Positions 2,446-32,721 of a stretch of DNA of 34,083 nt are shown in pieces (position 1 is the stretch's first letter; every line of letters begins with the position of its first letter). This stretch comes from a virus (taxonomy: Duplodnaviria > Heunggongvirae > Uroviricota > Caudoviricetes). Below the pieces are notes generated by a model. It saw only the letters and a list, made by a program, of their open reading frames with translations. It ran no database searches and was not told the origin of the DNA. The stretch lies in the IMG/VR virus record IMGVR_UViG_2698536651_000008, positions 1 to 34,083 of that record. One strand, given 5' to 3'. The translations under genes and the position numbers were made by a program.

Positions 2446-2447
2446 TA

Positions 2448-5420: not shown

Positions 5421-5423
5421 TAT

Positions 5424-8516: not shown

Positions 8517-8521
8517 GATGT

Positions 8522-12356: not shown

Positions 12357-12414
12357 CCGGCGTCAGCCAGTCCGGGAAAACCTTCACGATTAACCCTTAA
12401 TTTCAGGAAAAACT

Positions 12415-13488: not shown

Positions 13489-13491
13489 CCG

Positions 13492-14235: not shown

Positions 14236-14334
14236 CAACCGAATGCGCCCCGCGCCAGGGCGGCACGCCGGTCTGTGAGGGTGAATCACCTGACACTGTA
14301 CCGGCGTCCACCGCCCGACTTTTCAGAGGTAGTC

Positions 14335-15047: not shown

Positions 15048-15050
15048 CGC

Positions 15051-15332
15051 ATGACAGCAGAAGAAAAAAGCGTCCTGTCGCTTTTCATGATTGGGGTGCT
15101 GATTGTTGTCGGCAAGGTGCTTGCCGGTGGTGAACCCATCACCCCGCGTCTGTTTATTGGGCGCATGTTGCTCGGTGGTTTTGTCTCGATGGTTGCCGGT
15201 GTTGTTCTGGTGCAGTTTCCTGACCTGTCACTGCCTGCGGTGTGCGGCATCGGCTCCATGCTGGGTATCGCCGGTTATCAGGTGATTGAGATTGCCATTC
15301 AGCGCCGCTTTAAGGGCAGGGGGAAACCGTAA
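15051..15332 (+). CDS. Y: Holin Y (93 aa)
   Basis: 93-aa protein with hydrophobic transmembrane stretches and a charged C-terminus, immediately upstream of the endolysin. Confidence 0.8.
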   Translation: MTAEEKSVLSLFMIGVLIVVGKVLAGGEPITPRLFIGRMLLGGFVSMVAGVVLVQFPDLSLPAVCGIGSMLGIAGYQVIEIAIQRRFKGRGKP

Positions 15333-15829
15333 TGCCGGTAATTAACACGCATCAGAATATCGCCGCCTTTCTCGACATGCTGGCCGTGTCCGAAGGGACG
15401 GCGAATCACCCGCTGACGAAAAACCGGGGCTATGACGTGATAGTCACCGGACTGGACGGAAAGCCGGAAATATTCACCGACTACAGTGACCACCCGTTCG
15501 CGCATGGCCGACCGGCGAAGGTGTTTAACCGTCGCGGTGAAAAATCCACGGCTTCCGGTCGCTATCAGCAGCTTTACCTGTTCTGGCCGCATTACCGCAA
15601 ACAGCTTGCCCTGCCGGATTTCAGTCCGTTGTCGCAGGACAGGCTCGCCATTCAGTTGATCCGCGAACGCGGTGCACTGGATGACATCCGGGCGGGACGC
15701 ATTGAGCGCGCCATTTCACGCTGTCGCAATATCTGGGCGTCCCTGCCGGGTGCCGGTTACGGTCAGCGTGAGCATTCACTGGAAAAACTGGTCACCGTCT
15801 GGCGTAGCGCCGGCGGTGTACCGGCTTAA
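15332..15829 (+). CDS. K: Endolysin K (lysozyme-like, 165 aa)
   Basis: 165-aa ORF MPVINTHQNIAAFLDMLAVSEGT... in the P2 K position within the lysis cassette. Confidence 0.85.
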   Translation: MPVINTHQNIAAFLDMLAVSEGTANHPLTKNRGYDVIVTGLDGKPEIFTDYSDHPFAHGRPAKVFNRRGEKSTASGRYQQLYLFWPHYRKQLALPDFSPLSQDRLAIQLIRERGALDDIRAGRIERAISRCRNIWASLPGAGYGQREHSLEKLVTVWRSAGGVPA

Positions 15830-15843
15830 ACGGAGTAAACACC

Positions 15844-16269
15844 ATGAAGAAATTATCCCTTTCACTGATGCTGAATGTGTCGCTGGCGCTGATGCTGGCA
15901 CTGTCCCTGATTTACCCGCAGAGCGTGGCCGTCAGTTTTGTCGCCGCCTGGGCGATTCTGACGACGGTTATCTGTGTGGTTGCCGGTGGTGTCGGCGTGT
16001 ATGCCACAGAGTATGTACTGGAACGCTACGGGCGGGAGCTGCCGCCGGAATCGCTGGCCGTGAAGATTGTCGCGTCGCTGTTTTTGCAGCCGGTGCCGTG
16101 GCGCAGACGGGCGGCGGCTCTGGTAGTGATGGTGGCGACGTTTATCTCGCTGGTCGCTGCCGGGTGGATTTTTACCGCGCTGATTTATCTCGTGGCGTCA
16201 CTGTTTTTCCGGCTGATACGTACGGCCTGCCGTCAGCGTTTTGAGGGGCGGGAACCATGTCAAAACTGA
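15844..16269 (+). CDS. lysA: LysA lysis-timing membrane protein (141 aa)
   Basis: Highly hydrophobic multi-transmembrane ORF following K, as P2 lysA. Confidence 0.7.
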   Translation: MKKLSLSLMLNVSLALMLALSLIYPQSVAVSFVAAWAILTTVICVVAGGVGVYATEYVLERYGRELPPESLAVKIVASLFLQPVPWRRRAAALVVMVATFISLVAAGWIFTALIYLVASLFFRLIRTACRQRFEGREPCQN

Positions 16270-16682
16270 TGATTGTGCTGGTTGTGTTGTTATCACTGGC
16301 GGTGGCGGGGCTGTTTCTGGCGAAGCATGAAAACGCCAGCCTGCGCGCCTCGCTGGACAGGGTGAACAACGTCGCCAGTGAACAGCAGGTGACCATCACC
16401 ATGCTGAAAAATCAGCTTCATGTTGCCCTCACCAGAGCAGACAAAAACGAGCTGGCGCAGGTGGTACTGCGTCAGGAACTGGAGAACGCCGCGAAGCGTG
16501 AAGCACAGCGCGAGAAAACCATCACGAGGTTACTTAATGAAAACGAGGATTTTCGCCGCTGGTACGGTGCTGACCTGCCTGATGCTGTGCGCCGGTTGCA
16601 CCAGCGCCCCGCCTGCACTGACGCCAGTGATTGTCCACAACGCCTGCCCGAAAGTGAGCCTTTGCCCGATGCCGGGCAGTGA
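16257..16682 (+). CDS. lysB: LysB, Rz-like inner-membrane spanin (141 aa)
   Basis: N-terminal transmembrane helix followed by charged coiled-coil-like sequence; position as P2 lysB. Confidence 0.7.
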   Translation: MSKLMIVLVVLLSLAVAGLFLAKHENASLRASLDRVNNVASEQQVTITMLKNQLHVALTRADKNELAQVVLRQELENAAKREAQREKTITRLLNENEDFRRWYGADLPDAVRRLHQRPACTDASDCPQRLPESEPLPDAGQ

Positions 16683-16827
16683 CCCGCAGAAGAACGGCGA
16701 TTTAAGTGCCGATATCCGGCAGCTTGAGAACGCGCTGGCACGCTGTGCCAGCCAGGTAAAAATGATTAAACACTGTCAGGATGAAAACGATGCTCAAACC
16801 CGACAGCCTGCGCAGAGCGCTGACTGA
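16537..16827 (+). CDS. lysC: LysC, Rz1-like outer-membrane lipoprotein spanin, in +1 frame overlapping the lysB 3' end (96 aa)
   Basis: MKTRIFAAGTVLTCLMLCAGC: signal peptide with lipobox (LCAGC), proline-rich mature part; overlapping-gene architecture typical of spanin pairs. Confidence 0.6.
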   Translation: MKTRIFAAGTVLTCLMLCAGCTSAPPALTPVIVHNACPKVSLCPMPGSDPQKNGDLSADIRQLENALARCASQVKMIKHCQDENDAQTRQPAQSAD

Positions 16828-17257
16828 TGCCGTCACGGTGCTGAAAACCAGTCCCGAGATGCTGCGGATATTCATGGATAACGGGAGTATTGCCTCCACA
16901 CTGGCGACGTCGCTGTCATTTGAAAAGCGTTACACGCTCAATGTCATTGTGACCGACTTTACCGGTGATTTTGACCTGCTCATCGTGCCGGTGCTGGCGT
17001 GGCTGCGGGAAAATCAGCCCGACATCATGACCACCGACGAAGGCCAGAAAAAGGGCTTCACGTTTTATGCAGACATCAACAATGACAGCAGCTTTGATAT
17101 CAGCATCAGCCTGATGCTGACCGAGCGCACGCTGGTCAGTGAGGTGGACGGCGCGCTGCATGTGAAGAATATCCCGGAACCTCTGCCGCCGGAGCCGGTC
17201 ACCCGCCCGATGGAGCTTTATATCAATGGCGAACTGGTGAGTAAGTGGGATGAATGA
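16790..17257 (+). CDS. R: Tail completion protein R (155 aa)
   Basis: Start at MLKPDSLRRALTD...; length and position match P2 R. Confidence 0.75.
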   Translation: MLKPDSLRRALTDAVTVLKTSPEMLRIFMDNGSIASTLATSLSFEKRYTLNVIVTDFTGDFDLLIVPVLAWLRENQPDIMTTDEGQKKGFTFYADINNDSSFDISISLMLTERTLVSEVDGALHVKNIPEPLPPEPVTRPMELYINGELVSKWDE

Positions 17258-17702
17258 GTTTAAGCGTTTTGAAGACAGGCTGACCGGACTGATTGAGTCG
17301 CTGTCACCGTCAGGGCGTCGGCGACTGAGCGCCGAACTGGCGAAGCGCCTGCGGCAGAGTCAGCAGCGTCGGGTGATGGCACAGAAAGCCCCGGACGGCA
17401 CACCCTACGCGCCACGCCAGCAGCAGAGCGCCAGAAAAAAGACCGGTCGTGTTAAGCGAAAAATGTTTGCGAAACTTATCACCAGTCGCTTTTTGCATAT
17501 CCGCGCCAGCCCGGAACAGGCATCAATGGAATTTTACGGCGGGAAGTCACCGAAAATCGCCAGCGTGCATCAGTTCGGCCTGTCGGAAGAAACCCGGAAA
17601 GACGGTAAGAAAATTGATTATCCGGCGCGTCCTCTGCTCGGCTTTACCGGTGAGGATGTGCAGATGATTGAAGAGATTATCCTGGCTCACCTCGACCGTT
17701 AG
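17250..17702 (+). CDS. S: Tail completion protein S (150 aa)
   Basis: 150-aa ORF overlapping the R stop; matches P2 S length and order. Confidence 0.75.
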   Translation: MNEFKRFEDRLTGLIESLSPSGRRRLSAELAKRLRQSQQRRVMAQKAPDGTPYAPRQQQSARKKTGRVKRKMFAKLITSRFLHIRASPEQASMEFYGGKSPKIASVHQFGLSEETRKDGKKIDYPARPLLGFTGEDVQMIEEIILAHLDR

Positions 17703-17768
17703 TTGTGCCATTCCTGACACCTCATCGTCACATTGCCGCCGGTATGACCCGGCGGCATCCTTCCCGTT

Positions 17769-18404
17769 ATGAACACTCTCGCAAATATTCAGGAACTCGC
17801 GCGCGCACTGCGCAACATGATCCGCACCGGCCTTGTCGTCGAAACCGACCTTAACGCCGGTCGCTGCCGTGTGCAGACCGGCGGCATGTGCACTGACTGG
17901 CTTCAGTGGCTGACCCATCGTGCCGGTCGTTCGCGCACATGGTGGGCACCTTCCGTGGGGGAGCAGGTGCTGATTCTGGCCGTGGGCGGTGAACTCGACA
18001 CGGCGTTCGTTCTGCCGGGGATTTATTCCGGCGATAACCCCGCGCCGTCTGCGTCGGCGGATGCCCTGCATATCCGTTTCCCTGACGGGGCGGTGATTGA
18101 ATATGAACCTGAAACCAGTGCACTCACGGTAAGCGGAATTAAAACGGCCAGCGTGACGGCTTCTGATTCTGTTACTGCCACGGTGCCGGTGGTCATGGTG
18201 AAAGCATCAACCCGCGTCACCCTGGACACACCGGAGGTGGTCTGCACCAACAGGCTGATTACCGGCACGCTGGAAGTGCAGAAGGGCGGGACGATGCGCG
18301 GCAACATTGAACACACCGGCGGTGAACTCTCATCAAACGGTAAGGTACTGCATACCCATAAACACCCCGGCGACAGCGGCGGCACAACCGGGAGCCCTCT
18401 ATGA
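17769..18404 (+). CDS. V: Baseplate spike protein V (211 aa)
   Basis: 211-aa ORF; matches P2 V length and order. Confidence 0.85.
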   Translation: MNTLANIQELARALRNMIRTGLVVETDLNAGRCRVQTGGMCTDWLQWLTHRAGRSRTWWAPSVGEQVLILAVGGELDTAFVLPGIYSGDNPAPSASADALHIRFPDGAVIEYEPETSALTVSGIKTASVTASDSVTATVPVVMVKASTRVTLDTPEVVCTNRLITGTLEVQKGGTMRGNIEHTGGELSSNGKVLHTHKHPGDSGGTTGSPL

Positions 18405-18748
18405 CAGCGCGTTATCTCGGAATGAATCGCAGTGATGGCCTGACGGTCACTGACCTTGAGCATATCAGCCAGAGTATCGGCGATATCCTGCGCACACCGG
18501 TCGGCTCACGGGTGATGCGTCGTGATTACGGCTCGTTGCTGGCGTCAATGATTGACCAGCCGCAGACCCCGGCGCTTGAGTTGCAGATTAAGGTCGCCTG
18601 TTACATGGCGGTGCTGAAATGGGAACCCCGCGTCACGCTGTCATCTGTCACCACGGCGCGCAGTTTTGACGGGCGAATGACGGTCACGTTAACCGGCCAG
18701 CACAACGACACCGGCCAGCCACTTTCGTTAACCATCCCTGTGAGTTGA
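18401..18748 (+). CDS. W: Baseplate protein W (gp25-like, 115 aa)
   Basis: 115-aa ORF overlapping the V stop; matches P2 W. Confidence 0.85.
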   Translation: MTARYLGMNRSDGLTVTDLEHISQSIGDILRTPVGSRVMRRDYGSLLASMIDQPQTPALELQIKVACYMAVLKWEPRVTLSSVTTARSFDGRMTVTLTGQHNDTGQPLSLTIPVS

Positions 18749-18752
18749 AACC

Positions 18753-19661
18753 ATGCCGATTATCGACCTGAACCAGCTACCCGCACCGGATGTGGTCGAG
18801 GAGCTGGACTTTGAAACCATTCTCGCCGAACGCAAGGCGACACTGATTTCCCTTTACCCGGAAGACCAGCAGGAGGCGGTCGCCCGTACCCTGACGCTGG
18901 AATCTGAGCCTCTCGTCAAACTGCTGGAGGAAAATGCTTATCGTGAGCTTATCTGGCGTCAGCGTGTGAATGAGGCTGCACGGGCGGTGATGCTGGCCTG
19001 TGCAGCCGGTAATGACCTTGATGTGATTGGTGCCAATTACAACACCACGCGCCTGATTATCACCCCGGCAGATGATTCGACCATCCCGCCGACACCGGCA
19101 GTGATGGAATCTGACACCGATTATCGTCTGCGTATTCAGCAGGCGTTTGAAGGTTTAAGCGTCGCCGGGTCGGTGGGTGCCTATCAGTATCATGGCCGCA
19201 GTGCCGACGGGCGTGTCGCGGATATCTCTGTCACCAGTCCGTCTCCGGCCTGCGTCACCATCTCTGTGCTGTCACGTGAGAATAACGGTGTGGCATCCGA
19301 AGACCTGCTGGCTGTGGTACGTAACGCCCTTAATGGCGAGGATGTCAGGCCGGTGGCCGACCGCGTGACCGTGCAGTCTGCCGCCATCGTTGAATACCAG
19401 ATAAACGCCACGCTTTACCTTTACCCTGGTCCCGAAAGCGAACCCATCCGCGCGGCCGCAGTAAAAAAACTGGAAGCGTATATCACGGCACAGCACCGGC
19501 TGGGGCGCGACATCCGTCTGTCTGCCATTTATGCCGCTTTGCATGTGGAAGGCGTGCAGCGTGTCGAACTGACTGCACCACTGGCTGACATCGTGCTCAA
19601 CAGTACGCAGGCGTCTTTCTGTACCGAATACCGCGTCGTGACCGGAGGCTCGGATGAGTGA
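18753..19661 (+). CDS. J: Baseplate wedge protein J (302 aa)
   Basis: 302-aa ORF; matches P2 J length and order. Confidence 0.85.
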   Translation: MPIIDLNQLPAPDVVEELDFETILAERKATLISLYPEDQQEAVARTLTLESEPLVKLLEENAYRELIWRQRVNEAARAVMLACAAGNDLDVIGANYNTTRLIITPADDSTIPPTPAVMESDTDYRLRIQQAFEGLSVAGSVGAYQYHGRSADGRVADISVTSPSPACVTISVLSRENNGVASEDLLAVVRNALNGEDVRPVADRVTVQSAAIVEYQINATLYLYPGPESEPIRAAAVKKLEAYITAQHRLGRDIRLSAIYAALHVEGVQRVELTAPLADIVLNSTQASFCTEYRVVTGGSDE

Positions 19662-20184
19662 TTCGCGACTGCTGCCGACCGGCTCATCACCGCTTGAAGT
19701 TGCTGCCGCAAAAGCCTGTGCGGAAATTGAAAAAACGCCGGTCAGTATTCGTGAGCTGTGGAACCCGGATACCTGTCCGGCAAATCTGCTGCCGTGGCTG
19801 GCGTGGGCGTTTTCGGTCGACAGGTGGGATGAAAAGTGGCCGGAAGCGACAAAACGCGCCGTTATCCGCGATGCGTATTTCATTCATTGTCATAAAGGCA
19901 CTGTCGGCGCAATCCGGCGTGTGGTGGAGCCGCTCGGCTATCTCATTAACGTAAAGGAATGGTGGGAGACAAACGACCCGCCCGGAACCTTTCGCCTTGA
20001 TATCGGTGTGCTGGAAAGCGGTATCACGGAGGAGATGTATCTGGAAATGGAACGGCTGATTGCCGATGCCAAACCCGCAAGTCGCCACCTTATCGGCCTG
20101 AACATTATCCAGGACATTCCCGGCTATCTGTATACAGGCGGTGTGGTCTGTGATGGTGATGTTATTACTGTTTATCCCGGATAA
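19654..20184 (+). CDS. I: Baseplate protein I (176 aa)
   Basis: 176-aa ORF overlapping the J stop; matches P2 I. Confidence 0.8.
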   Translation: MSDSRLLPTGSSPLEVAAAKACAEIEKTPVSIRELWNPDTCPANLLPWLAWAFSVDRWDEKWPEATKRAVIRDAYFIHCHKGTVGAIRRVVEPLGYLINVKEWWETNDPPGTFRLDIGVLESGITEEMYLEMERLIADAKPASRHLIGLNIIQDIPGYLYTGGVVCDGDVITVYPG

Positions 20185-20194
20185 GTGAGAAACA

Positions 20195-22813
20195 ATGAGC
20201 ACGAAATTTAAAACCGTTATCACTACTGCCGGAGCCGCAAAGCTGGCAGCCGCCACTGTCCCCGGCGGGAAAAAAGTAAACCTGTCTGCAATGGCCGTGG
20301 GTGACGGTAATGGCAAATTGCCGGTGCCGGATGCCGGTCAGACGAAACTGGTGCATGAGGTCTGGCGTCACGCTCTGAATAAAGTCAGCGTGGATAACAA
20401 GAATAAAAACTATATCGTGGCTGAACTGGTTGTACCGCCCGAAGTGGGCGGCTTCTGGATGCGTGAGCTTGGTCTGTATGACGATGCCGGAACACTGATT
20501 GCGGTATCCAACATGGCAGAAAGCTATAAGCCAGAACTGGCTGAAGGCTCCGGACGTGCGCAGACCTGCCGCATGGTTATTATTCTCAGCAACGTGGCGT
20601 CCGTTGAGCTGAGTATTGATGCCAGCACGGTGATGGCGACGCAGGATTACGTCGATGACAAAATCGCAGAGCATGAGCAGTCCCGCCGCCATCCTGACGC
20701 CACGCTGACAGAAAAAGGTTTTACTCAGTTAAGCAGTGCAACAAACAGCACCAGTGAAAAGCTGGCGGCAACGCCAAAGGCAGTAAAAGCAGCCTATGAC
20801 AATGCTGAGAAACGTCTGCAGAAAGACCAGAACGGTGGCGATATTCCAGATAAGGACGCTTTTCTGGACAATATTGGCGTTACCAGCCTGACGTTTATGA
20901 AAAACAACGGCGAAATGCCGGTTGATGCTGATCTGAATACATTTGGTCCTGTTAAGGCTTATTCAGGTATCTGGTCTAAAGCAACATCCACCAACGCAAC
21001 ACTGGAGAAAAATTTCCCTGAAGACGGTGCAGTCGGTGTGCTTGAGGTATTCAATGGCGGTAATTTTGCAGGAATGCAGCGTTATACCACCAGAACAGGC
21101 AATGTTTATATGCGCAACCTTTCTGGCACCTGGAATGGCTCAGACGGTCCGTGGAGCTACTGGCGTCAGATTCAGTCAGCAACACGCCCCCTTAGTACAA
21201 CCATTGACCTGAACACGCTCGGAGACGCAGAGCATCTTGGCTTATGGCGAAACAGTAGTGGCTCTATCGCTTCATTTGACCGCAACTATCCGGAAGAAGG
21301 AAGTTATGGTCAGGGACTCCTTGAAGTTCTTGAAGGTGGTGGGTACTCACGCATGCAACGCTACACGACCCGCCGTGGGAATGTATATGTTCGCTGCCTT
21401 TCTGCTACATGGAATGCAGAGAATCCACAGTGGGAACCGTGGTTAAGAGTCGGTCATCAGTCAGAGAGTCGTTATTACGACGGGGATTTGAATGATGTGA
21501 CTTCACCAGGTATTTACAGCGTTACAGGGAAGGCGACAAACGGTCCAATGCAGGATACCGCTGGAGCGACACTGCTTGGGATACTGGAAGTAATCAGACG
21601 TTTTGATGGTGTATCTGTCTGGCAGCGTTACACAACCACAGGGAAAGCAGAAACCACAAAGGGGCGCACTTTTGAGCGCGTCTATACCGGCAGCTCGTGG
21701 AGCGAATGGCGGGAAGTCTACACCTCGTATTCACTTCCCCTGAATCTGGGTATCGGCGGTGCAGTGGCAAAACTCACCAGCCTGGACTGGCAGACCCACG
21801 ACTTTGTGCCGGGCAGTCTGATAACCGTTCGGCTTGATAACATGACCAATATTCCCGACGGTATGGACTGGGGCGTCATTGATGGCAACCTGATAAACAT
21901 CGCAGTTGGTCCGAGTGATGATTCCGGTACTGGGCGCTCAATGCATGTATGGCGCAGCACTGTAAGTAAAGCGAACTACCGCTTTTTTATGGTGCGTATT
22001 TCAGGAAATCCGGGAAGCCGCACGATCACGACAAGACGTGTGCCAATTATCGACGAAGCTCAGACATGGGCGGCGAAACAAACCTTCAGCGCCGGTCTTT
22101 CAGGCGAACTGTCCGGCAATGCGGCTACAGCTACAAAGCTGAAAACGGCAAGGGCGATTAATGGCGTAACGTTTGACGGGACGAAAGATATTGAAGCGTT
22201 TCCGCCAGGTGTTCCGTTGCCGTGGCCATCAGATACACCACCTGCGGGCTATGCAATTATGCAGGGGCAGACGTTTGATAAGGCTGCATATCCGAAACTG
22301 GCTGTTGCCTATCCTTCAGGTGTTATTCCTGATATGCGCGGCTGGACAATCAAGGGCAAACCTGCCAGTGGGCGTGCCGTATTGTCACAGGAACAGGACG
22401 GGATTAAATCGCATACTCACAGCGCCAGTGCGTCAAATACGGATTTGGGAACGAAAACAACCAGTTCATTTGATTACGGGACAAAAACAGTCAGTACGTT
22501 TAACCACGGCACAAAATCAACCAATACTTCTGGCAATCATACACATACCGTCGGTTTTGCTGTGAGCGTGCAATCAGGCGGTGCAGATTATGGTGTTCCG
22601 CGAAGTGATAAAGGTGCTACGACTACAAGTTCATCAGGCAATCATGCACATACAGTCGACATTGGAGCACATAACCATACTGTTGGTATTGGTGCACATT
22701 CACACACGGTTGCTATTGGCTCACACGGGCACTCTATTACCGTTAATGCTACAGGTAATACAGAAAATACCGTAAAAAACATCGCATTTAACTATATTGT
22801 GAGGCTTGCATAA
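20195..22813 (+). CDS. H: Tail fibre protein H, enlarged mosaic variant (872 aa)
   Basis: The N-terminal ~200 aa ([25 protein letters not shown]...) look like the P2 H baseplate-proximal region, but the protein is longer than the P2 H I recall. It has three tandem ~80-90 aa repeats (...[22 protein letters not shown]... / ...[22 protein letters not shown]... / ...[22 protein letters not shown]...) and a C-terminal His-rich GxHxHTV repeat array. Confidence 0.85.
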
Positions 22814-23391
22814 TGGCTTTCAGAATGAGTGCAGAAGCACAAACTATCCGCGTATTTAATTTACTTGATGGAACCAATGAATTTATTGGGGAAAGTGACG
22901 CGTATATTCCACCGTATACAGGTCTGCCTGCAAACAGTACAGATATTGCGCCGCCTGATATACCGGCTGGTTATGCAGCCGTTTTCAATGCAGATGAAAT
23001 AAAATGGGAGTTGATGGAAGATCATCGCGGAAAGACTGTCTACGAAACGAAAACGGGAGCAGCCATTTATATTTCTGAACTTGGCGCATTACCTCCAGAC
23101 GTGACAGCCATTTCCCCGGATGGGGATTATCAGAAATGGAACGGAAATGCGTGGGTGAATGATGAGAATGCAGAGCGTGATGCGCTTGTCAGAGCGGCTG
23201 ACTCTCAGAAGAAAGAGCTGATTGCATATGCAGGTGAAATTATTGCCACGCTGCAGGATGCTGTCGATTTAGATATGGCTACCGAGGAAGAAAAGTTAAG
23301 CCTGACACACTGGAAAAAATACCGTGTGCTACTGAATCGCGTTCAGCCGGAAGATGCTCCGGATATAGAATGGCCTGAAATGCCACAATAA
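22813..23391 (+). CDS. G: Tail fibre assembly chaperone G (192 aa)
   Basis: ORF starting at the H stop (TAATG overlap), in the P2 G position. Confidence 0.8.
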
Positions 23392-24085
23392 ATCGTATTA
23401 GATCTGGTGTGAGATTACTCATCTATGGCACAGAGTAAAACCTAATCTGACAGTCCGCTCTGTGCCTGTAGCGGAAGTATTGTGCTTGCGACAGCTATGG
23501 AAAACGCACTGCGAACGGTGAATCCGGAGAGAAAAGATTATCTATTCTTAAGCTCGGATCACTACGGCGTCCGTCGTACGGTGTGGTCGGGGCATCTTAA
23601 TAGCATCGACGCAGAACGTTATTTGCGCAATGTACGGTCGGTAATCGCGATCATCCAATCATTTGCGTAAACCAACTCTTGCATTGGTGTACCATCCTGC
23701 ATGGGGAATAATCTCCGAGTCATGCATGCTGTCAATACGGCTCTCGCGGGACTCTTGCTGAGAAACTCAACCCATCTTCACTAAAAATGCAGTATCCTGC
23801 GAAGTTCTTATTTCTAATTCACTTGATAAAAATCTTTATAGTTCTCCTTTCCGTAAAACTTCCTGCGTTATTTCTTCTTTTCAGCCCCATCAATACATCG
23901 AGAAGGCATGCGAAGCATTAAAAAAACTCTCTAAATTTCCGAAAAATAGGAAATTTGCTTGGTATAATCGAGATTGAGATACACATGTTCTCATACCCCC
24001 TGCCGGGCAAGCACGGTAGGGATTATTTTCAATCAATATGGAGAGGAGCCTATGGCTTAATCTGTTTATAGAAGGAGTAGTAAAA

Positions 24086-24796
24086 ATGACCAAATGGACA
24101 TTTGAAAAAAATATTGTTGCACAAGGAATTGCTGCAAAAAATAAATCTGGACGTATTCCGGCGATTGACATTCAACCAGGCTCTGGTCTTTTGAAGCGTC
24201 ATCAAATGGCGTTGTATGAAAGCGCAATCAACTTCAGAGCGCCAATTGAGGAAAATGAATGTGGGCGATACAACCCCCCAGGGGGATGTGTGGCGGTATG
24301 GTATGCCTCTGACTCTGCGTTAACGGCGGCGGCAGAAGCTTATGGGCGTTTGCTCCATCTCGAAGGGACGATTTCTTATCCTGAATCGGTACTTTCACAA
24401 CACTATATGTGCTCTGTGGATGTCATGAGGCCAGTGAAAGTGATCGATGTTGTAGCGCTCTGTGAGTTGTTACATATTCCTTTGGATAGCTTAGAGAACG
24501 AGGATTACACTTTTACTCAATGGCTAATGGAACATCTTTATACACATTTCGGGCGTGACTATGACGGGATAGCCTATACCTCAAGGCATAAACGCTATAA
24601 ACGCTGTTATGCCTTTTGGGAACGACCGGATAGTACACCAGCCTTTACCGATACCCCTCAGGGGATGGTGCCTTATGCCAGTTACATCGAAAATGACGAA
24701 GGTATCTTCCCTAAAGGGTGGCACAAAGGAACGATGTCAGGTGAAGAGATGTTCGAAGAACTGCTTGGATTCGAAATTACGCCAGAACCAATGTAA
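24086..24796 (+). CDS. RES-domain protein (putative NAD+-targeting toxin/effector), about 236 aa
   Basis: Motifs GRYNPPGGCVAVWYASDSALTAAAEA and DGIAYTSRH...CYAFWE resemble the conserved Arg / Glu / Ser blocks of RES-domain toxins (recognised by eye). Start chosen at MTKWTF (ATG 24086) with SD GAAGGAG; AT-rich cargo at the P2 Z/fun position. Confidence 0.55.
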   Translation: MTKWTFEKNIVAQGIAAKNKSGRIPAIDIQPGSGLLKRHQMALYESAINFRAPIEENECGRYNPPGGCVAVWYASDSALTAAAEAYGRLLHLEGTISYPESVLSQHYMCSVDVMRPVKVIDVVALCELLHIPLDSLENEDYTFTQWLMEHLYTHFGRDYDGIAYTSRHKRYKRCYAFWERPDSTPAFTDTPQGMVPYASYIENDEGIFPKGWHKGTMSGEEMFEELLGFEITPEPM

Positions 24797-24798
24797 AC

Positions 24799-24828
24799 CA
24801 AAGAGGGGCTGGCTAGCCCCTCTTTTTA
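24799..24828. terminator. Bidirectional rho-independent terminator between the convergent cargo genes
   Basis: AAA-agaggggc-tggcta-gcccctct-TTTTT: 8-bp GC-rich stem flanked by an A-run and a T-run. Confidence 0.5.
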
Positions 24829-24834
24829 AAACAA

Positions 24835-25479
24835 TTAACTGGATACATGATTTCCGAACTGTTTAGCGGCACGGATAGCCAGACTAAGTTCACTATTTTT
24901 AGCGCCGTCCTGCATGATTTGAATCGGCGTCTTTTTCAGGCCTTCGCTATTAACCTCTATTGGTGATTTCAGCACACCCAACCTCAGCATTGGATGGGTA
25001 TTCTCGTCAAATGCCGCCATTACGTCTTCAAAGCCGGGAATCAGCCCGTTATCTGTGAACTGAAATTTCGGGAAAATAAAATCACCGTTCTGCTTGAATG
25101 CTAAAAGCTTGTTCTTCTTAACGCGAATGTTGATCGCCTGGCGGGTGATTCCAAGAATATCGACCACGTCATTTACCTTTAGCGTACCGCCTAACTCCTG
25201 AAGCCCACGATAAAATCGTTCCAGATTTTCGCGACGACGGCGCACTTTACGTAGTTCGTAGTCATTGACACGAGTCTTCTGTTCGAGTTGAACGGTGTAG
25301 AGCAATTGCATCAGTGAACTATCATCCAGCGTGATAGCATTAATTGCCTGGTTTTTGTCTTCAAATTCAGGCATCAGGGAAATAGCGAGGTTGTTAATTC
25401 TTTTCAGAAGGTTCAACTGGTATTCATTCAGCTTAGCTGAAGTGTTGGTTTCCCTTTCTGCTGCGGTGTGTTTGATCAT
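24835..25479 (-). CDS. HTH-containing hypothetical protein (about 214 aa), possible Xre-like partner of the RES protein
   Basis: Start at MIKHTAAER... with SD GGAGGTG. Central helix-turn-helix-like segment LKVNDVVDILGITRQAINIRVKKNKLLAFKQNG; C-terminal ~80 aa of unknown function. Convergent with the RES gene. Confidence 0.5.
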   Translation of the reverse strand: MIKHTAAERETNTSAKLNEYQLNLLKRINNLAISLMPEFEDKNQAINAITLDDSSLMQLLYTVQLEQKTRVNDYELRKVRRRRENLERFYRGLQELGGTLKVNDVVDILGITRQAINIRVKKNKLLAFKQNGDFIFPKFQFTDNGLIPGFEDVMAAFDENTHPMLRLGVLKSPIEVNSEGLKKTPIQIMQDGAKNSELSLAIRAAKQFGNHVSS

Positions 25480-25846
25480 TGTGCACCTCCATTTGACGAT
25501 TATCATAATTCATTTTATTGGAATGGTCAAATTCAAGGGCAAGCAATCTATGGTCAATCAAGGCGTAATTCTTTGGCATAGACCCGATTGACTCATGCAC
25601 CGTGATGTTAGCATGCACATAATTATGGTTATCCACACCTCGTACAAATCAGTCTGCCAGACTTGATAGCTTTTTGGCTATGTAAATTGTCAGTCGTAAA
25701 ATTAGTGAGTACAAATCAGGACAGGTGGGCGAATTGCCCGCCTTTTCTTTATCTGTTGTTTCATCCACTGACCAGCCAGGTCAAATAGCGTCTCATGTAC
25801 TACCCAACGGAAAATAGTTGCACCCATTAACCACGGAGTTAAACGG

Positions 25847-27037
25847 ATGAGTGACTATCATCACGGCGTGCAGGTGCTGGAGATTAACGACGGCACCCGC
25901 GTCATTTCCACCGTATCCACGGCCATTGTCGGCATGGTCTGCACGGCCAGCGATGCGGATGCGGAAACCTTCCCCCTCAATAAACCGGTGCTGATCACCA
26001 ATGTGCAGAGCGCAATTGCAAAGGCCGGTAAAAAAGGCACGCTGGCGGCATCGTTACAGGCCATCGCCGACCAGTCAAAACCGGTCACCGTTGTCGTGCG
26101 TGTGGAAGACGGCACCGGCGACGACGAGGAAACGAAACTCGCGCAGACCGTTTCCAATATCATTGGCACCACCGACGAAAACGGTCAGTACACCGGACTG
26201 AAAGCCCTGCTGGCGGCGGAGTCGGTAACCGGTGTTAAACCGCGTATTCTCGGTGTGCCGGGACTGGACACCAAAGAGGTGGCTGTTGCACTGGTATCCG
26301 TCTGTCAGAAGCTGCGCGCTTTCGGGTATATCAGCGCATGGGGCTGTAAAACCATTTCCGAGGTGAAAGCCTACCGCCAGAATTTCAGCCAGCGTGAGCT
26401 GATGGTCATCTGGCCGGATTTCCTCGCATGGGATACGGTCACCAGTACCACCGCCACCGCGTATGCCACCGCCCGTGCGCTGGGTCTGCGCGCTAAAATC
26501 GACCAGGAGCAGGGCTGGCATAAAACGCTGTCCAACGTCGGGGTAAACGGTGTTACCGGCATCAGCGCATCTGTATTCTGGGATTTGCAGGAGTCCGGCA
26601 CCGATGCTGACCTGCTTAACGAGTCAGGCGTCACTACGCTGATTCGCCGCGACGGTTTCCGATTCTGGGGTAACCGTACCTGCTCTGATGACCCGCTGTT
26701 CCTCTTTGAAAACTACACCCGCACCGCGCAGGTGCTGGCCGACACGATGGCTGAGGCGCACATGTGGGCGGTGGACAAGCCCATCACCGCAACGCTGATT
26801 CGCGACATCGTTGACGGCATCAATGCCAAATTCCGTGAGCTGAAAACAAACGGCTATATCGTGGATGCGACCTGCTGGTTCAGCGAAGAATCCAACGATG
26901 CGGAAACCCTCAAGGCCGGAAAACTGTATATCGACTACGACTATACACCGGTGCCTCCTCTTGAAAACCTGACCCTGCGCCAGCGTATTACCGATAAATA
27001 CCTGGCAAATCTGGTCACCTCGGTTAACAGCAATTAA
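25847..27037 (+). CDS. FI: Tail sheath protein FI (396 aa)
   Basis: 396-aa ORF MSDYHHGVQVLEINDGTRVI...; matches P2 FI. Confidence 0.9.
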   Translation: MSDYHHGVQVLEINDGTRVISTVSTAIVGMVCTASDADAETFPLNKPVLITNVQSAIAKAGKKGTLAASLQAIADQSKPVTVVVRVEDGTGDDEETKLAQTVSNIIGTTDENGQYTGLKALLAAESVTGVKPRILGVPGLDTKEVAVALVSVCQKLRAFGYISAWGCKTISEVKAYRQNFSQRELMVIWPDFLAWDTVTSTTATAYATARALGLRAKIDQEQGWHKTLSNVGVNGVTGISASVFWDLQESGTDADLLNESGVTTLIRRDGFRFWGNRTCSDDPLFLFENYTRTAQVLADTMAEAHMWAVDKPITATLIRDIVDGINAKFRELKTNGYIVDATCWFSEESNDAETLKAGKLYIDYDYTPVPPLENLTLRQRITDKYLANLVTSVNSN

Positions 27038-27049
27038 GGAGCCTGACCG

Positions 27050-27568
27050 ATGGCAATGCCGCGCAAACTCAAGTTAATGAACGTCTTTCTGAACGGCTAC
27101 AGCTATCAGGGCGTCGCGAAGTCCGTCACGCTACCAAAACTGACCCGTAAGCTCGAAAACTATCGCGGTGCGGGGATGAACGGCAGCGCACCGGTAGACC
27201 TCGGCCTTGATGACGATGCGCTGTCAATGGAGTGGTCGCTCGGTGGCTTCCCGGATTCGGTTATCTGGGAGCTTTACGCCGCAACCGGTGTGGATTCCGT
27301 ACCGATTCGTTTTGCAGGCTCTTACCAGCGCGACGATACCGGCGAAACGGTGGCCGTCGAGGTGGTCATGCGTGGACGTCAGAAAGAAATCGACACCGGC
27401 GAGGGCAAACAGGGAGAAGACACCGAGTCGAAAATCTCCGTGGTCTGCACCTATTTCCGGCTGACGATGGACGGTAAGGAGCTGGTCGAAATCGACACCA
27501 TCAACATGATTGAGAAGGTGAACGGCGTCGACCGGCTGGAGCAACACCGCCGCAATATCGGCCTGTGA
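27050..27568 (+). CDS. FII: Tail tube protein FII (172 aa)
   Basis: 172-aa ORF following the sheath gene; matches P2 FII. Confidence 0.9.
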   Translation: MAMPRKLKLMNVFLNGYSYQGVAKSVTLPKLTRKLENYRGAGMNGSAPVDLGLDDDALSMEWSLGGFPDSVIWELYAATGVDSVPIRFAGSYQRDDTGETVAVEVVMRGRQKEIDTGEGKQGEDTESKISVVCTYFRLTMDGKELVEIDTINMIEKVNGVDRLEQHRRNIGL

Positions 27569-27624
27569 TTTTCATCCGGTCAGCCTGGCTGACCGGTTAA
27601 CCCCGATTCAGAAGTGAGAAAACC

Positions 27625-27900
27625 ATGAACAAAGAAAATGTGATTACCCTGGACAATCCGGTCAAGCGTGGTGAGCAGGTTATCGAACAGGTCACGCTGA
27701 TGAAACCTAATGCCGGGACGCTGCGCGGTGTCAGTCTGGCTGCGGTCGCGAACTCCGAAGTCGATGCACTGATTAAGGTGCTGCCGCGCATGACGGCACC
27801 GATGCTGACCGAGCAGGAAGTCGCCGCGCTGGAACTGCCTGACCTTGTGGCGCTGGCCGGTAAGGTGGTCGGTTTTTTGTCGCCGAACTCGGTGCAGTAA
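27625..27900 (+). CDS. E: Tail assembly chaperone E (91 aa)
   Basis: 91-aa ORF ending just after a TTTTTTG slippery heptamer; matches P2 E. Confidence 0.8.
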   Translation: MNKENVITLDNPVKRGEQVIEQVTLMKPNAGTLRGVSLAAVANSEVDALIKVLPRMTAPMLTEQEVAALELPDLVALAGKVVGFLSPNSVQ

Positions 27901-28052
27901 CGTTCCCGAAAAATCTCTCGGTCGATGACCTGATGGCGGATGTGGCAGTGATATTTCACTGGCCGCCATCAGAACTGTATCCCATGAGCCTGACCGAACT
28001 CATCACATGGCGCGAAAAGGCGCTCCGGCGAAGCGGAAACACGAATGAGTAA
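27625..28052 (+). CDS. E': E+E' -1 programmed-frameshift product (predicted 142 aa)
   Basis: Slippery heptamer T_TTT_TTG at 27873-27879. Reading in the -1 frame from 27879 I find an open frame to a TAA at 28050-28052, overlapping the T start, giving 84+1+57 = 142 aa, which equals the P2 E+E' length I recall. Confidence 0.6.
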
Positions 28053-30492
28053 CAATGTAAAATTACAGGTATTGCTCAGGGCTGTTGACCAGGCATCCCG
28101 CCCGTTTAAATCCATCCGCACAGCGAGCAAATCGCTGTCGGGGGATATCCGGGAAACACAAAAATCACTGCGCGAGCTGAACGGTCACGCATCCCGTATT
28201 GAGGGATTTCGCAAGACCAGTGCACAGCTCGCCGTGACTGGTCATGCACTTGAAAAGGCACGGCAGGAGGCCGAAGCCCTTGCCACACAGTTTAAAAACA
28301 CCGAACGTCCGACACGTGCTCAGGCGAAAGTGCTGGAATCCGCGAAGCGTGCGGCGGAGGACTTACAGGCGAAATATTACCGCCTGACGGATTCCGTTAA
28401 ACGCCAGCAGCGGGAACTGGCCGTTGTGGGAATTAATACCCGCAATCTTGCACATGATGAGCAGGGACTGAAAAACCGTATCAGTGAAACCACCGCCCAG
28501 CTTAACCGGCAGCGTGACGCGCTGGCGCGTGTCAGTGCGCAACAGGCAAAACTTAACGCAGTCAAACAGCGTTATCAGGCCGGAAAGGAACTGGCCGGAA
28601 ATATGGCCTCAGTGGGCGCTGCCGGTGTGGGGATTGCTGCTGCGGGAACGATGGCCGGAGTTAAGTTGCTGATGCCCGGTTATGAGTTTGCGCAGAAAAA
28701 CTCAGAATTGCAGGCCGTGCTCGGTGTGGCAAAAGACTCCGCCGAAATGGCCGCGCTCCGCAAGCAGGCGCGCCAGCTCGGCGACAATACCGCAGCCTCG
28801 GCAGATGATGCAGCCGGTGCTCAGATTATTATTGCGAAAGCCGGTGGGGATGTTGATGCCATTCAGGCGGCAACGCCGGTCACGCTGAATATGGCGCTGG
28901 CGAACCGTCGCACGATGGAAGAAAACGCCGCCCTGCTGATGGGGATGAAATCCGCCTTTCAGCTTTCAAACGATAAGGTCGCTCATATCGGGGATGTTCT
29001 CTCCATGACGATGAACAAAACCGCCGCCGATTTTGACGGTATGAGCGATGCGCTGACCTATGCCGCACCTGTGGCAAAAAATGCCGGTGTCAGCATTGAA
29101 GAAACCGCCGCAATGGTCGGGGCGCTGCATGATGCAAAAATTACCGGTTCAATGGCGGGGACGGGAAGCCGTGCCGTGTTAAGTCGCCTGCAGGCACCGA
29201 CGGGAAAAGCATGGGATGCACTCAAAGAGCTTGGAGTGAAAACCTCAGATAGCAAGGGAAACACCCGACCAGTATTTACAATTCTGAAAGAAATGCAGGC
29301 CAGTTTTGAGAAAAACCGGCTCGGTACTGCCCAGCAGGCTGAATACATGAAAACCATTTTCGGGGAGGAGGCCAGCTCAGCCGCCGCCGTGCTGATGACT
29401 GCCGCCTCAACCGGAAAGCTGGACAAACTGACCGCTGCGTTTAAAGCCTCAGACGGGAAGACCGCGGAGCTGGTAAATATCATGCAGGACAACCTCGGCG
29501 GTGACTTTAAGGAGTTTCAGTCCGCTTATGAGGCGGTGGGGACTGACCTGTTTGACCAGCAGGAAGGCGCGCTGCGTAAGCTCACGCAGACGGCCACAAA
29601 GTATGTGTTAAAACTCGACGGCTGGATACAGAAAAACAAATCACTGGCGTCAACCATCGGCATCATTGTCGGTGGTGCACTGGCGCTGACTGGTGTCATC
29701 GGTGCCATTGGCCTCGTAGCCTGGCCGGTTATCACCGGCATCAATGCCATCATCGCGGCAGCAGGCGCAATGGGTGCAATCTTCACGACGGTTGGTAGTG
29801 CCATTATGACGGCCATCGGGGCGATTAGCTGGCCGGTTGTGGCCGTGGTGGCTGCCATTGTCGCCGGGGCGTTGCTTATCCGTAAATACTGGGAGCCTGT
29901 CAGCGCATTCTTTGGCGGTGTGGTTGAAGGGCTGAAAGCGGCATTTGCGCCGGTGGGGGAGCTGTTCACGCCACTGAAACCGGTGTTTGACTGGCTGGGC
30001 GAAAAGTTACAGGCCGCGTGGCAGTGGTTTAAAAACCTGATTGCCCCGGTTAAAGCCACCCAGGACACCCTGAATCGTTGCCGTGACACGGGCGTCATGT
30101 TCGGGCAGGCACTGGCTGACGCGCTGATGCTGCCGCTTAATGCGTTCAACAAACTGCGCAGCGGTATTGACTGGGTACTGGAAAAGCTCGGGGTCATCAA
30201 CAAAGAGTCTGACGCACTTGACCAGACCGCCGCCAGAACTCAAGCCGCCACGTATGGCAGCGGTGGTTATATTCCGGCGACCAGCTCTTATGCAGGCTAT
30301 CAGGCTTATCAGCCGGTTACGGCACCGGCTGGCCGCTCTTATGTGGACCAGAGTAAAAACGAATATCACATCAGTCTGACGGGCGGTACTGCACCGGGGA
30401 CTCAGCTCGACCGCCAGTTACAGGATGCGCTCGAAAAATACGAGCGGGATAAACGTGCGCGCGCCCGTGCCAGCATGATGCATGACGGTTAA
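28045..30492 (+). CDS. T: Tail tape measure protein T (815 aa)
   Basis: 815-aa ORF with coiled-coil N-terminus and Gly/Ala-rich hydrophobic segments; matches P2 T. Confidence 0.9.
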   Translation: MSNNVKLQVLLRAVDQASRPFKSIRTASKSLSGDIRETQKSLRELNGHASRIEGFRKTSAQLAVTGHALEKARQEAEALATQFKNTERPTRAQAKVLESAKRAAEDLQAKYYRLTDSVKRQQRELAVVGINTRNLAHDEQGLKNRISETTAQLNRQRDALARVSAQQAKLNAVKQRYQAGKELAGNMASVGAAGVGIAAAGTMAGVKLLMPGYEFAQKNSELQAVLGVAKDSAEMAALRKQARQLGDNTAASADDAAGAQIIIAKAGGDVDAIQAATPVTLNMALANRRTMEENAALLMGMKSAFQLSNDKVAHIGDVLSMTMNKTAADFDGMSDALTYAAPVAKNAGVSIEETAAMVGALHDAKITGSMAGTGSRAVLSRLQAPTGKAWDALKELGVKTSDSKGNTRPVFTILKEMQASFEKNRLGTAQQAEYMKTIFGEEASSAAAVLMTAASTGKLDKLTAAFKASDGKTAELVNIMQDNLGGDFKEFQSAYEAVGTDLFDQQEGALRKLTQTATKYVLKLDGWIQKNKSLASTIGIIVGGALALTGVIGAIGLVAWPVITGINAIIAAAGAMGAIFTTVGSAIMTAIGAISWPVVAVVAAIVAGALLIRKYWEPVSAFFGGVVEGLKAAFAPVGELFTPLKPVFDWLGEKLQAAWQWFKNLIAPVKATQDTLNRCRDTGVMFGQALADALMLPLNAFNKLRSGIDWVLEKLGVINKESDALDQTAARTQAATYGSGGYIPATSSYAGYQAYQPVTAPAGRSYVDQSKNEYHISLTGGTAPGTQLDRQLQDALEKYERDKRARARASMMHDG

Positions 30493-30506
30493 GGAGGTGA
30501 CGAAAA

Positions 30507-30986
30507 ATGATGCTCGCGTTAGGTATGTTTGTTTTTATGCGCCAGACGCTGCCACACCAGACCATGCAGCGTGAATCAGATTATCGCTGGCCGTCAAATT
30601 CCCGTATCGGTAAACGGGATGCCTTTCAGTTTCTCGGTGTGGGTGAGGAAAACATTACGCTTGCCGGTGTGCTTTATCCCGAACTGACAGGCGGAAAGCT
30701 GACGATGACCACGCTCAGGCTGATGGCAGAGGAAGGTCGGGCGTGGCCGTTGCTGGATGGCACCGGCATGATTTACGGCATGTATGTCATCAGCAGGGTG
30801 AGTGAAACAGGGAGTATTTTCTTTGCAGACGGCACACCCCGGAAAATTGATTTTACGCTGTCGCTCACCCGCGTTGATGAATCACTGGCCGCGCTTTATG
30901 GCGATATCGGTAAACAGGCGGAATCGCTCATCGGTAAGGCTGGCAGTATGGCGACCAGATTCACGGGTATGACGGGGGCGGGATAA
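30507..30986 (+). CDS. U: Tail protein U (159 aa)
   Basis: 159-aa ORF; matches P2 U length and order. Confidence 0.85.
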   Translation: MMLALGMFVFMRQTLPHQTMQRESDYRWPSNSRIGKRDAFQFLGVGEENITLAGVLYPELTGGKLTMTTLRLMAEEGRAWPLLDGTGMIYGMYVISRVSETGSIFFADGTPRKIDFTLSLTRVDESLAALYGDIGKQAESLIGKAGSMATRFTGMTGAG

Positions 30987-32149
30987 TGCTGGATGCGCTG
31001 ACATTTGATGCAGGCAGTACGCTGACGCCGGATTACATGCTGATGCTCGACAGCAGGGATATTACCGGCAATATCAGCGACCGTCTGATGAGCATGACCC
31101 TGACGGATAACCGGGGCTTTGAGGCTGACCAGCTTGATATTGAACTGAACGATGCCGACGGGCAGGTCGGGCTGCCGGTTCGTGGCGCTGTCCTGACGGT
31201 GTATATCGGCTGGAAAGGTTTTGCCCTGGTATGCAAAGGGAAATTTACCGTTGATGAGGTTGAACACCGGGGCGCGCCGGATGTGGTTACCATCCGCGCC
31301 CGGAGTGCAGATTTTCGCGGGACGCTCAATTCCCGCCGTGAAGGCTCCTGGCATGACACCACGCTCGGTGCGATTGTTGAGGTGATAGCCTCCCGTAACA
31401 GGCTGGAAGCCAGTGTCGCGCCGTCACTGGCCGGAATTAAAATCCCGCACATCGACCAGTCGCAGGAGTCTGATGCAAAATTCCTGACCCGCCTTGCTGA
31501 ACGCAACGGCGGGGAGGTGTCGGTAAAAATGGGAAAACTGTTGTTTCTCAAAGCGGGGCAGGGAGTGACGGCCAGCGGTAAAAAAATCCCGCAGGTCACC
31601 ATAACCCGCAGCGACGGCGACCGCCATCATTTTGCGATTGCTGACCGTGGAGCCTACACCGGTGTAACGGCAAAATGGCTACACACCAAAGACCCGAAGC
31701 CTCAAAAGCAGAAGGTAAAACTGAAACGCAAAAAGAAAGAGAAACACCTGCGCGCACTGGAGCACCCGAAAGCGAAACCGGTCAGGCAGAAGAAAGCGCC
31801 TAAAGTACCGGAAGCGCGTGAAGGTGAATACATGGCCGGTGAGGCTGACAACGTTTTTGCCCTGACCACGGTATATGCCACGAAAGCGCAGGCCATGCGC
31901 GCCGCTCAGGCGAAGTGGGATAAACTGCAACGGGGCGTTGCGGAGTTCTCCATCAGCCTGGCTACCGGTCGGGCAGATATTTACACGGAAACACCGGTCA
32001 AAGTGTCTGGCTTTAAGCGCGTCATAGACGAGCAGGACTGGACAATCACTAAGGTGACACATTTTCTGAATAATAGCGGCTTCACGACGTCCTTAGAGCT
32101 TGAGGTCAGGCTTTCTGATGTGGAGTACGAAACAGAAGATGATGAGTGA
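30986..32149 (+). CDS. D: Late tail protein D (387 aa)
   Basis: 387-aa ORF overlapping the U stop; matches P2 D. Confidence 0.85.
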   Translation: MLDALTFDAGSTLTPDYMLMLDSRDITGNISDRLMSMTLTDNRGFEADQLDIELNDADGQVGLPVRGAVLTVYIGWKGFALVCKGKFTVDEVEHRGAPDVVTIRARSADFRGTLNSRREGSWHDTTLGAIVEVIASRNRLEASVAPSLAGIKIPHIDQSQESDAKFLTRLAERNGGEVSVKMGKLLFLKAGQGVTASGKKIPQVTITRSDGDRHHFAIADRGAYTGVTAKWLHTKDPKPQKQKVKLKRKKKEKHLRALEHPKAKPVRQKKAPKVPEAREGEYMAGEADNVFALTTVYATKAQAMRAAQAKWDKLQRGVAEFSISLATGRADIYTETPVKVSGFKRVIDEQDWTITKVTHFLNNSGFTTSLELEVRLSDVEYETEDDE

Positions 32150-32230
32150 TGTTTTTGTTTTATCTGTTTGTTTTGTAAGGATAAATTAACTAAAATGGCA
32201 CCATCAACAAAACCGGAAGAGGTGCTCGCG

Positions 32231-32449
32231 ATGTTTCATTGTCCTTTATGCCAGCATGCCGCACATGCGCGTACAAGTCGCTATATCACTGACACGACAA
32301 AAGAGCGTTATCATCAGTGCCAGAACGTGAATTGCAGCGCCACGTTCATCACTTATGAGTCGGTACAGCGATACATCGTGAAGCCGGGAGAAGTCCACGC
32401 CGTAAGGCCGCACCCGTTGCCATCAGGACAGCAAATTATGTGGATGTAA
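32231..32449 (+). CDS. ogr: Late-gene transcription activator Ogr (zinc finger, 72 aa)
   Basis: MFHCPLCQHAAHARTSRYITDTTKERYHQCQNVNCSATF... with a CxxC...CxxxxC zinc finger; the ORF-track start (32168) is longer than the 72-aa Ogr. Confidence 0.85.
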   Translation: MFHCPLCQHAAHARTSRYITDTTKERYHQCQNVNCSATFITYESVQRYIVKPGEVHAVRPHPLPSGQQIMWM

Positions 32450-32461
32450 TTACAAACAGAA

Positions 32462-32486
32462 AGCCCCTCAGTCGAGGGGCTTTTTT
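32462..32486 (+). terminator. Rho-independent terminator after ogr
   Basis: gcccctc-agtc-gaggggc hairpin followed by TTTTTT. Confidence 0.55.
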
Positions 32487-32550
32487 GTCGATGTGGTCAA
32501 TGTGTGGACGTGACCAGAAATAAATCCTTTTATTTCAATTTATTGTACGT

Positions 32551-32577
32551 AAAAAATAAGCCCGTGTAAGGGAGATT
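32551..32577. other. attR: Probable prophage attR core (P2-type att core overlapping the cyaR 3' end)
   Basis: The sequence aaaaaataagcccgtgtaagggagatt matches what I recall as the P2 att core, which coincides with the CyaR terminator. The exact extent is uncertain; attL lies outside the window. Confidence 0.45.
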
Positions 32578-32637
32578 ACACAGGCTAAGGAGGTGGTTCC
32601 TGGTACAGCTAGCATTTTATGGGTTATGTTTTTCAGC
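32551..32637 (-). ncRNA. cyaR: CyaR (RyeE) Hfq-dependent small RNA
   Basis: Minus-strand sequence GCTGAAAAACATAACCCATAAAATGCTAGCTGTACCAGGAACCACCTCCTTAGCCTGTGTAATCTCCCTTACACGGGCTTATTTTTT matches the E. coli CyaR sequence as I recall it, including the terminator hairpin and U-tail; it lies between yegQ and the phage ogr, as at the K-12 ogrK locus. Confidence 0.8.
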
Positions 32638-32672
32638 GAAACGGATGATAACCTTAATAAATGCAGCTGTAT

Positions 32673-32688
32673 GTGATCGGTTTCTAAG
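32673..32688. promoter_or_regulatory. Candidate CRP-binding site of the cyaR promoter
   Basis: TGTGA-N6-TCTAA on the plus strand (TTAGA-N6-TCACA on the minus strand), centred about 40 bp upstream of the inferred CyaR 5' end; CyaR is known to be CRP-activated. Confidence 0.4.
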
Positions 32689-32721
32689 AATTTTCCATCC
32701 GGGAAAAATAATCGAAATTAA

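Follow-up and report, generated by a model that had tools for sequence, protein, structure and literature searches.

The window, by which we mean the whole analysed stretch of 34,083 nucleotides, carries at 32450-32721 what we regard with high confidence as the attR of a P2-type prophage that was inserted by Int at the 3' end of cyaR, between yegQ/trhP and yegR. A 27-bp copy of the 3' end of cyaR is present in the phage; the insertion fell inside it and left cyaR unaltered. This junction is of the ordinary, long-known P2 attachment-site type, which has already been described; the classical P2 attachment site at the cyaR 3' end is called locI. The junction nevertheless serves as a worked example of an sRNA terminator that is used like a tRNA 3' end while the gene remains unharmed. 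The features of the window are collected in Table 1.

Table 1. Positions of the prophage, junction and host features within the window
Feature	Position	Strand	Basis
Five non-int bases, TTACC	1-5	.	relatives diverge here; IS1-end match
int', truncated	6-375	-	P2 match, ORF
P2-type prophage body, int' to ogr	6-32550	.	local blastn against P2
C	491-790	-	prophage body
cox	905-1180		prophage body
Gene order: int', C, cox, B, A, cargo, cos (about 8335), Q to S, V to H/G, cargo, FI to D, ogr			
ogr, P2 late-gene activator, 72 aa	32231-32449	+	NCBIfam NF007241 equivalog, P2 synteny
Rho-independent terminator of ogr and the F operon, convergent with cyaR	32460-32489	+	P2 annotation, scan, fold
attR phage arm: Int arm-type sites (P arm)	32488-32515	.	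P2 RefSeq 24293-24320 + offset
attR phage arm: IHF site	32519-32552	.	P2 RefSeq 24324-24357 + offset
P2 att core, 27 bp	32551-32577	.	exact match to NC_001895 attP
cyaR (ryeE), 87-nt sRNA, intact	32551-32637	-	Rfam RF00112 and K-12 identity
cyaR intrinsic terminator hairpin (11-bp stem, 6-nt loop)	32559-32586, tail 32551-32558	-	terminator scan, fold
Candidate cyaR -10 hexamer TATCAT, -13 to -8	32645-32650	-	inferred from position relative to +1 at 32637
Candidate CRP site TGTGA-N6-TCTAA, centre -42.5	32672-32687	.	sequence, conservation
yegQ/trhP, host gene upstream of cyaR, 453 aa	32722-34083	-	ORF; annotation in matching genomes

CyaR is an Hfq-dependent sRNA activated by CRP (for the CRP dependence, see PMC3333887 and PMC11795201). 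The earlier note, written from the sequence alone, had identified CyaR on the minus strand of the junction, and this identification is confirmed by a full-length match to the Rfam family CyaR_RyeE (RF00112) at 32554-32639 (-), with 100.7 bits against a curated gathering score of 47 bits, an E-value of 3.3e-19 and coverage of model positions 1-85 of 85. It is the sole Rfam family matched in the 34-kb window, in which no tRNA or tmRNA genes were found. The annotated cyaR of K-12 (b4438, NC_000913.3 2167114-2167200) corresponds to window positions 32637-32551 with 0 mismatches (87/87), and the yegQ-cyaR spacer, including the promoter, is identical to that of K-12 throughout, up to yegQ/trhP; the right edge of the window lies at the start codon of this gene. 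In the predicted fold, the GGAACCACCUCC seed hairpin is followed by a terminator with an 11-bp stem and a 6-nt loop, and then by the UUAUUUUUU tail. The terminator hairpin folds with -17.9 kcal/mol (z -4.4), and 0 of 200 shuffled sequences were equally stable. Together with its 8-nt U-rich tail, this intrinsic terminator is fully kept at attR.

Upstream of the gene, the hexamer at the -10 position reads TATCAT, TACTAT or TATTAT in Kluyvera. The earlier note had placed a candidate CRP site at 32673-32688; the TGTGA-N6-TCTAA motif is indeed present, and its correct position lies one base away. On the cyaR strand, this CRP-like site reads TTAGA-AACCGA-TCACA and spans -50 to -35 from the +1 G (32637), with 8 of the 10 half-site positions agreeing with the consensus. 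The site (TTAGAAAnnGATCACA) is kept in both Escherichia and Kluyvera, while its flanks have diverged on either side. With +1 taken from the annotated 5' end of the K-12 gene, its centre deviates by one base from where class II sites typically lie. Judged from the sequence, CyaR would be expressed and terminated as normal in this lysogen.

The 27-bp core, AAAAAATAAGCCCGTGTAAGGGAGATT, occurs as a single copy in the window and was absent from 100 shuffles (0 occurrences). It is the same as the attP of the P2 RefSeq record NC_001895 (24356-24382), which carries an Int core-binding feature on the same stretch; the P2 att core named in the earlier note is therefore confirmed. Read on the cyaR strand, the core takes in the final 2 nt of the terminator's 5' stem arm, together with the loop, the complete 3' arm and the U-tail; the nine bases that precede it in the 5' stem arm are of host origin. 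The similarity to P2, which reaches 99.7% through D and ogr, ends exactly at 32577, the final base of the core. P2 features were transferred to the window with an offset of +8195, and the alignment is gap-free over the final 678 bases. Positions 32488-32552, with the predicted Int arm-type and IHF sites, are identical to the P arm and IHF features of P2. Since the bases of the core are the same in phage and host, the crossover point determines which terminator bases at attR derive from the phage, and it leaves no trace in the sequence. The proposal that integration regenerated a functional terminator from phage DNA is thus upheld as regards the intact terminator at attR, whereas the phage origin of particular bases cannot be read from the sequence. 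The phage end of the window can be set at 32577 or 32550 by convention, and cyaR counts as host DNA. A promoter-like match on the minus strand in the core and P arm (32570-32542) was ignored, as 1 was found and 1.2 were expected in shuffled sequences.

Since the window begins inside int, its own attL lies outside, and the intact Campbell-type structure is seen in close relatives. In strain 1500, whose junction is 99.9% identical, an exact copy of the core is located between yegR and int. In the draft genome GCA_001748535.1, a sister prophage agrees with window positions 6-18018 at 100.000% identity (0 mismatches over 18,013 bp); this prophage has an intact int of 337 aa, and an exact core lies 80 bp past int, adjoining yegR (18737-18763 of locus L029). 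The second core copy that had been anticipated past int is therefore present beside yegR in these relatives. In E. ruysiae, two core copies reside on a single contig, one flanked by int-side DNA and the other by ogr-side DNA. A four-way alignment of attR, attP and attL sequences resolves attR into P arm, core and cyaR, and attL into host DNA, core and P' arm. The core copy at attL, in which the 5' stem arm is missing, shows no stable fold (z 0.13), so that a single functional cyaR results from the insertion.

To rebuild the empty site, the attL host flank of strain 1500, the core and the host flank of the window were joined into a sequence of 827 bp. This rebuilt attB is found as one uninterrupted piece with 100% identity in every E. 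coli genome among the matches listed. At a coverage of at least 80%, it is present in 4562 of 5426 E. coli genomes, a count that, judging by the joining rule, also takes in short remnants of the K-12 type. The comparison with an unoccupied yegQ-cyaR locus, which the earlier note had proposed, accordingly bears out its view that the 3' end of the sRNA served as attB, as does the phage/host boundary at the core edge.

From the established biology of P2, Int, together with IHF, would exchange strands inside the core. Because the attP core copies the 3' end of cyaR, recombination anywhere within the core rebuilds an unchanged cyaR at attR. The rebuilt gene would then be joined to the P arm of the phage, with its Int arm sites, IHF site and ogr terminator, and a non-folding 27-bp stub would remain at attL beside int. 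In this arrangement, CyaR would retain its host promoter, comprising the putative CRP site at -42.5 and the TATCAT hexamer. On the phage side, ogr matches the NCBIfam equivalog NF007241 over positions 1-72 of 72 (E 4.6e-53). The ogr terminator had been placed at 32462-32486, which is essentially correct; the scan assigns the stem-loop to 32460-32483, with a T-run extending to 32489. The stem-loop is the same as the terminator annotated in P2 at 24265-24288 and folds with -22.2 kcal/mol (z -4.7), and the region is also terminator-like on the reverse strand. Its convergence with cyaR at a distance of about 65 bp likewise holds, as the gap to the cyaR 3' end measures about 61-67 bp. Since 32488-32552 is identical to P2, this gap between the facing terminators is simply the P arm of attP, and it is present in every P2 attR. 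The terminators of the ogr/F operon and of cyaR, facing each other some 65 bp apart, should separate phage late transcription from cyaR transcription, as we infer from their arrangement.

The body of the prophage matches P2 by blastn in four segments, namely 6-5201 (int' to gene A), 8335-17704 (cos to S), 17769-20800 (V to the start of H) and 25654-32577 (FI to ogr and the core), with identities of 92-97.5%. Between the first two segments, at 5202-8334, P2 orf91, tin and old are replaced by a single protein of 864 aa (ORF 5424-8018, -). Its N-terminal region contains a SIR2 domain (Pfam SIR2_2, 9e-15), about 500 residues have no family match, and the Aga_SIR2 models of PADLOC match at 3e-61 in the N-terminal third only. 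The position of the tin/old region, 5202-8334 here, is a known defence hotspot of P2 (PMC9122126). At 23476-25653, the place of P2 fun(Z) is taken by a gene for a RES-domain protein of 252 aa (24038-24796, +; Pfam RES, 2.4e-12), which is convergent with the gene of a 223-aa protein (24835-25506, -). The latter has no family match and, by eye, an apparent helix-turn-helix. The two proteins may form a toxin-antitoxin-like pair in an unusual orientation. P2 orf30 is missing (17705-17768). At 20801-23367, neither the C-terminal part of the tail fibre H nor the assembly gene G is related to its P2 counterpart, and H comprises 872 aa here versus 2010 nt in P2. These differences in the H tip and G imply a different receptor specificity. 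For an understanding of this prophage, the truncated int and the defence cargo carry more weight than the junction.

Other readings of the junction were weighed against an attR of a full prophage at an undamaged cyaR. K-12 has an almost identical cyaR-P arm-ogrK junction, belonging to the short cryptic P2 remnant PR-X (D'-ogrK), and some of the 1128 E. coli genomes with this junction (see below) probably hold such remnants. That the present junction also belongs to a remnant of this kind is nevertheless extremely unlikely, and the reading is refuted by the whole P2 gene order from int' to ogr (A, cos, head, lysis, tail and D) at 92-97.5% identity; the K-12 remnant, by comparison, ends inside D. 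That the cyaR terminator and the P2 core agree by coincidence, the actual insertion having occurred at a neighbouring sequence, is hardly conceivable. The shortness of the shared segment (27 bp) could be cited in favour of this reading, and nothing else could. The boundary between phage and host falls exactly at the core edge at both junctions, CyaR is found at 20 of the 21 exact core copies in other species, and removal of the prophage in silico yields the natural empty site with 100% identity, by which a coincidence is already refuted. The insertion might also have damaged cyaR, by altering its terminator or abolishing its expression, so that the attR copy would be a pseudogene; the change from host to phage DNA just past the U-tail can in principle affect the efficiency of termination. 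We consider such damage very improbable, because the 87 nt and the promoter agree base for base with K-12, where CyaR is expressed and has been studied beside the same P arm, and the hairpin and the 8-nt U-rich tail are wholly retained. The preferred reading therefore remains an attR at which cyaR is intact.

A further reading concerns the left end of the window and modifies this explanation rather than replacing it. In place of an intact P2-type tyrosine integrase, int retains codons 1-123 only and is broken after codon 123, at window base 5/6, where foreign bases supply a TAA that closes an ORF of 124 aa. This truncation bears on the present mobility of the prophage, not on the origin of the junction. 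All related genomes, including the sister prophage, run from ...ATCACGAT directly into TGATACTCG, whereas the window has TTACC before TGATACTCG, and every genome match to the left end begins at query base 6. The five bases create the in-frame stop codon and coincide with the final 5 nt of an actual IS1 copy, which ends in ...GGAGTCATTACC. Because the sister prophage is otherwise identical and has an intact int, the disruption must be very recent. The left edge of the window falls on a stop codon and the right edge on the yegQ start, which suggests, and is consistent with, a truncated int of 124 aa having been called as a gene. With moderate confidence, we therefore favour an insertion element, probably IS1, that cut int and rendered the prophage non-excisable, with attR as a static scar. 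The assignment to IS1 is drawn from just 5 bases, and a contig end or another rearrangement would give the same appearance. Moreover, the junction of int with the foreign bases has no second copy in any collection searched: the 124-aa fragment gave no exact match in the protein-position index, a chimeric query of the IS1 end and int gave no place with at least 80% coverage in complete E. coli genomes, and exact 32-mer scans for the junction found none in GTDB species-representative genomes, metagenome contigs or viral contigs. The best matches to query positions 1-175, in BL21 and E. coli B, were rejected as an IS1/int junction, as they consist of an IS1 in gatR with a spurious extension of 37 nt; BL21 has an empty site at cyaR. 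Given the broken int, the prophage may be unable to excise; if the IS1 reading is true, it could not excise by itself and attR would be a frozen junction.

In the K-12 RefSeq record, a 'cryptic prophage PR-X' spans 2167183-2167811 and thereby takes in the final 18 nt of cyaR; it continues with ogrK and yegZ, the latter being a fragment of D, inside which the remnant stops. This element was reportedly recognised as a P2 remnant by Barreiro and Haggard-Ljungquist in 1992. At its far end (L004 2310-2330), a partial core, AAAAAAATAAGCCCGTGTA, is fused directly to the 3' part of D, indicating that the deletion that formed the remnant had one endpoint within the attL core. The flank of the empty site just past cyaR (L001 5640-5700) contains a decayed P arm, in which TCGATGTGGTCAATG matches at 15/15 positions and is followed by GTGACCAG. 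Relative to P2, this arm has a 16-nt deletion; the observation also concerns locus L027 and L004 2330-2400, and a fuller version is present in the cryptic-clade Escherichia sp. MOD1-EC7003. A decayed P arm at the 'unoccupied' site suggests an ancient P2-type insertion that was almost wholly deleted. We consider it fairly probable that the 'unoccupied' site is itself a scar, in that the 3' flank of cyaR throughout the genus would derive from a P2-type prophage of ancient origin, and the locus would have gone through insertion and nearly complete deletion more than once. The present copy would then stand at the step where the loss of int, probably by IS1, locks the prophage in place together with its defence cargo. 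For the 10-nt AAGGGAGATT upstream of the decayed P arm, the alignment is compatible with two origins, a second, partial core or what is left of the 3' half of the ogr terminator.

The ogr-cyaR-yegQ junction is found with at least 80% query coverage in 1128 of 5426 complete E. coli genomes. Among species-representative genomes (one per species), the exact core occurs in 21 copies, 20 of which lie at the 3' end of a full CyaR match; the twenty-first is the attL of the E. ruysiae prophage. The CyaR-associated copies belong to Escherichia, Shigella, Kluyvera and two records labelled Enterobacter hormaechei. Where the flank is available, the yegQ/trhP-cyaR synteny is observed at all 21 core loci except the E. 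ruysiae attL copy, and the DNA directly past the U-tail varies among these genomes, as expected of an insertion hotspot. The idea that the core is unusually conserved across genera was rejected as circular, because the loci were chosen by an exact core match. A passage of Bobay et al. (PMC3603311), citing Wassarman et al. 2001, describes ryeE in E. coli as 'previously known to be targeted by phages'. Annotators should be aware that cyaR is often unannotated at this junction, as in the record of strain 1500. Some peculiarities of the database records were also noted. In the two records labelled Enterobacter hormaechei, yegQ is 98% identical to that of E. coli, and ECDA1023, labelled E. coli, resembles Kluyvera in both its yegQ (76%) and its cyaR promoter; these labels (loci L007, L018 and L008) are probably species mislabels. 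Several 'complete' E. coli assemblies (NZ_CP040269.1, NZ_CP075663.1 and others) begin not at dnaA but at approximately window position 2933, close to where the P2 replication gene A (ORF 2892-5207) starts. Since this rotated start lies inside the prophage, the prophage spans the record origin in those assemblies.

The closest known systems are P2 at locI and PR-X of K-12 (ogrK, yegZ), which have the same 27-bp core, P arm, IHF site and ogr terminator and share the host neighbours yegQ/trhP, cyaR and yegR with the present prophage. PR-X is a remnant of 629 bp, whereas the prophage described here is full length. Compared with P2, it carries different cargo at tin/old and fun(Z) and a different tail-fibre tip, lacks orf30 and has a truncated int. 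The same logic applies to temperate phages and islands that insert into tRNA and tmRNA genes: attP contains the 3' portion of a gene for a small structured RNA, insertion restores that gene, and the other junction keeps a partial duplicate, as is the case here. Phage 186 in tRNA-Ile and Fels-2 and SopE-phi in ssrA insert at the 3' end and carry a copy of that end (PMC3448106). In contrast to these systems, the target here is the terminator of an Hfq-dependent sRNA instead of a tRNA, and the shared segment is 27 bp and covers one hairpin arm. The ryeB/sdsR sRNA locus of Salmonella is a recurrent phage insertion point (PMC3333887, PMC3603311) and has in common with the present site that an sRNA locus is targeted, although the sRNA, the phages and the host genus are different.
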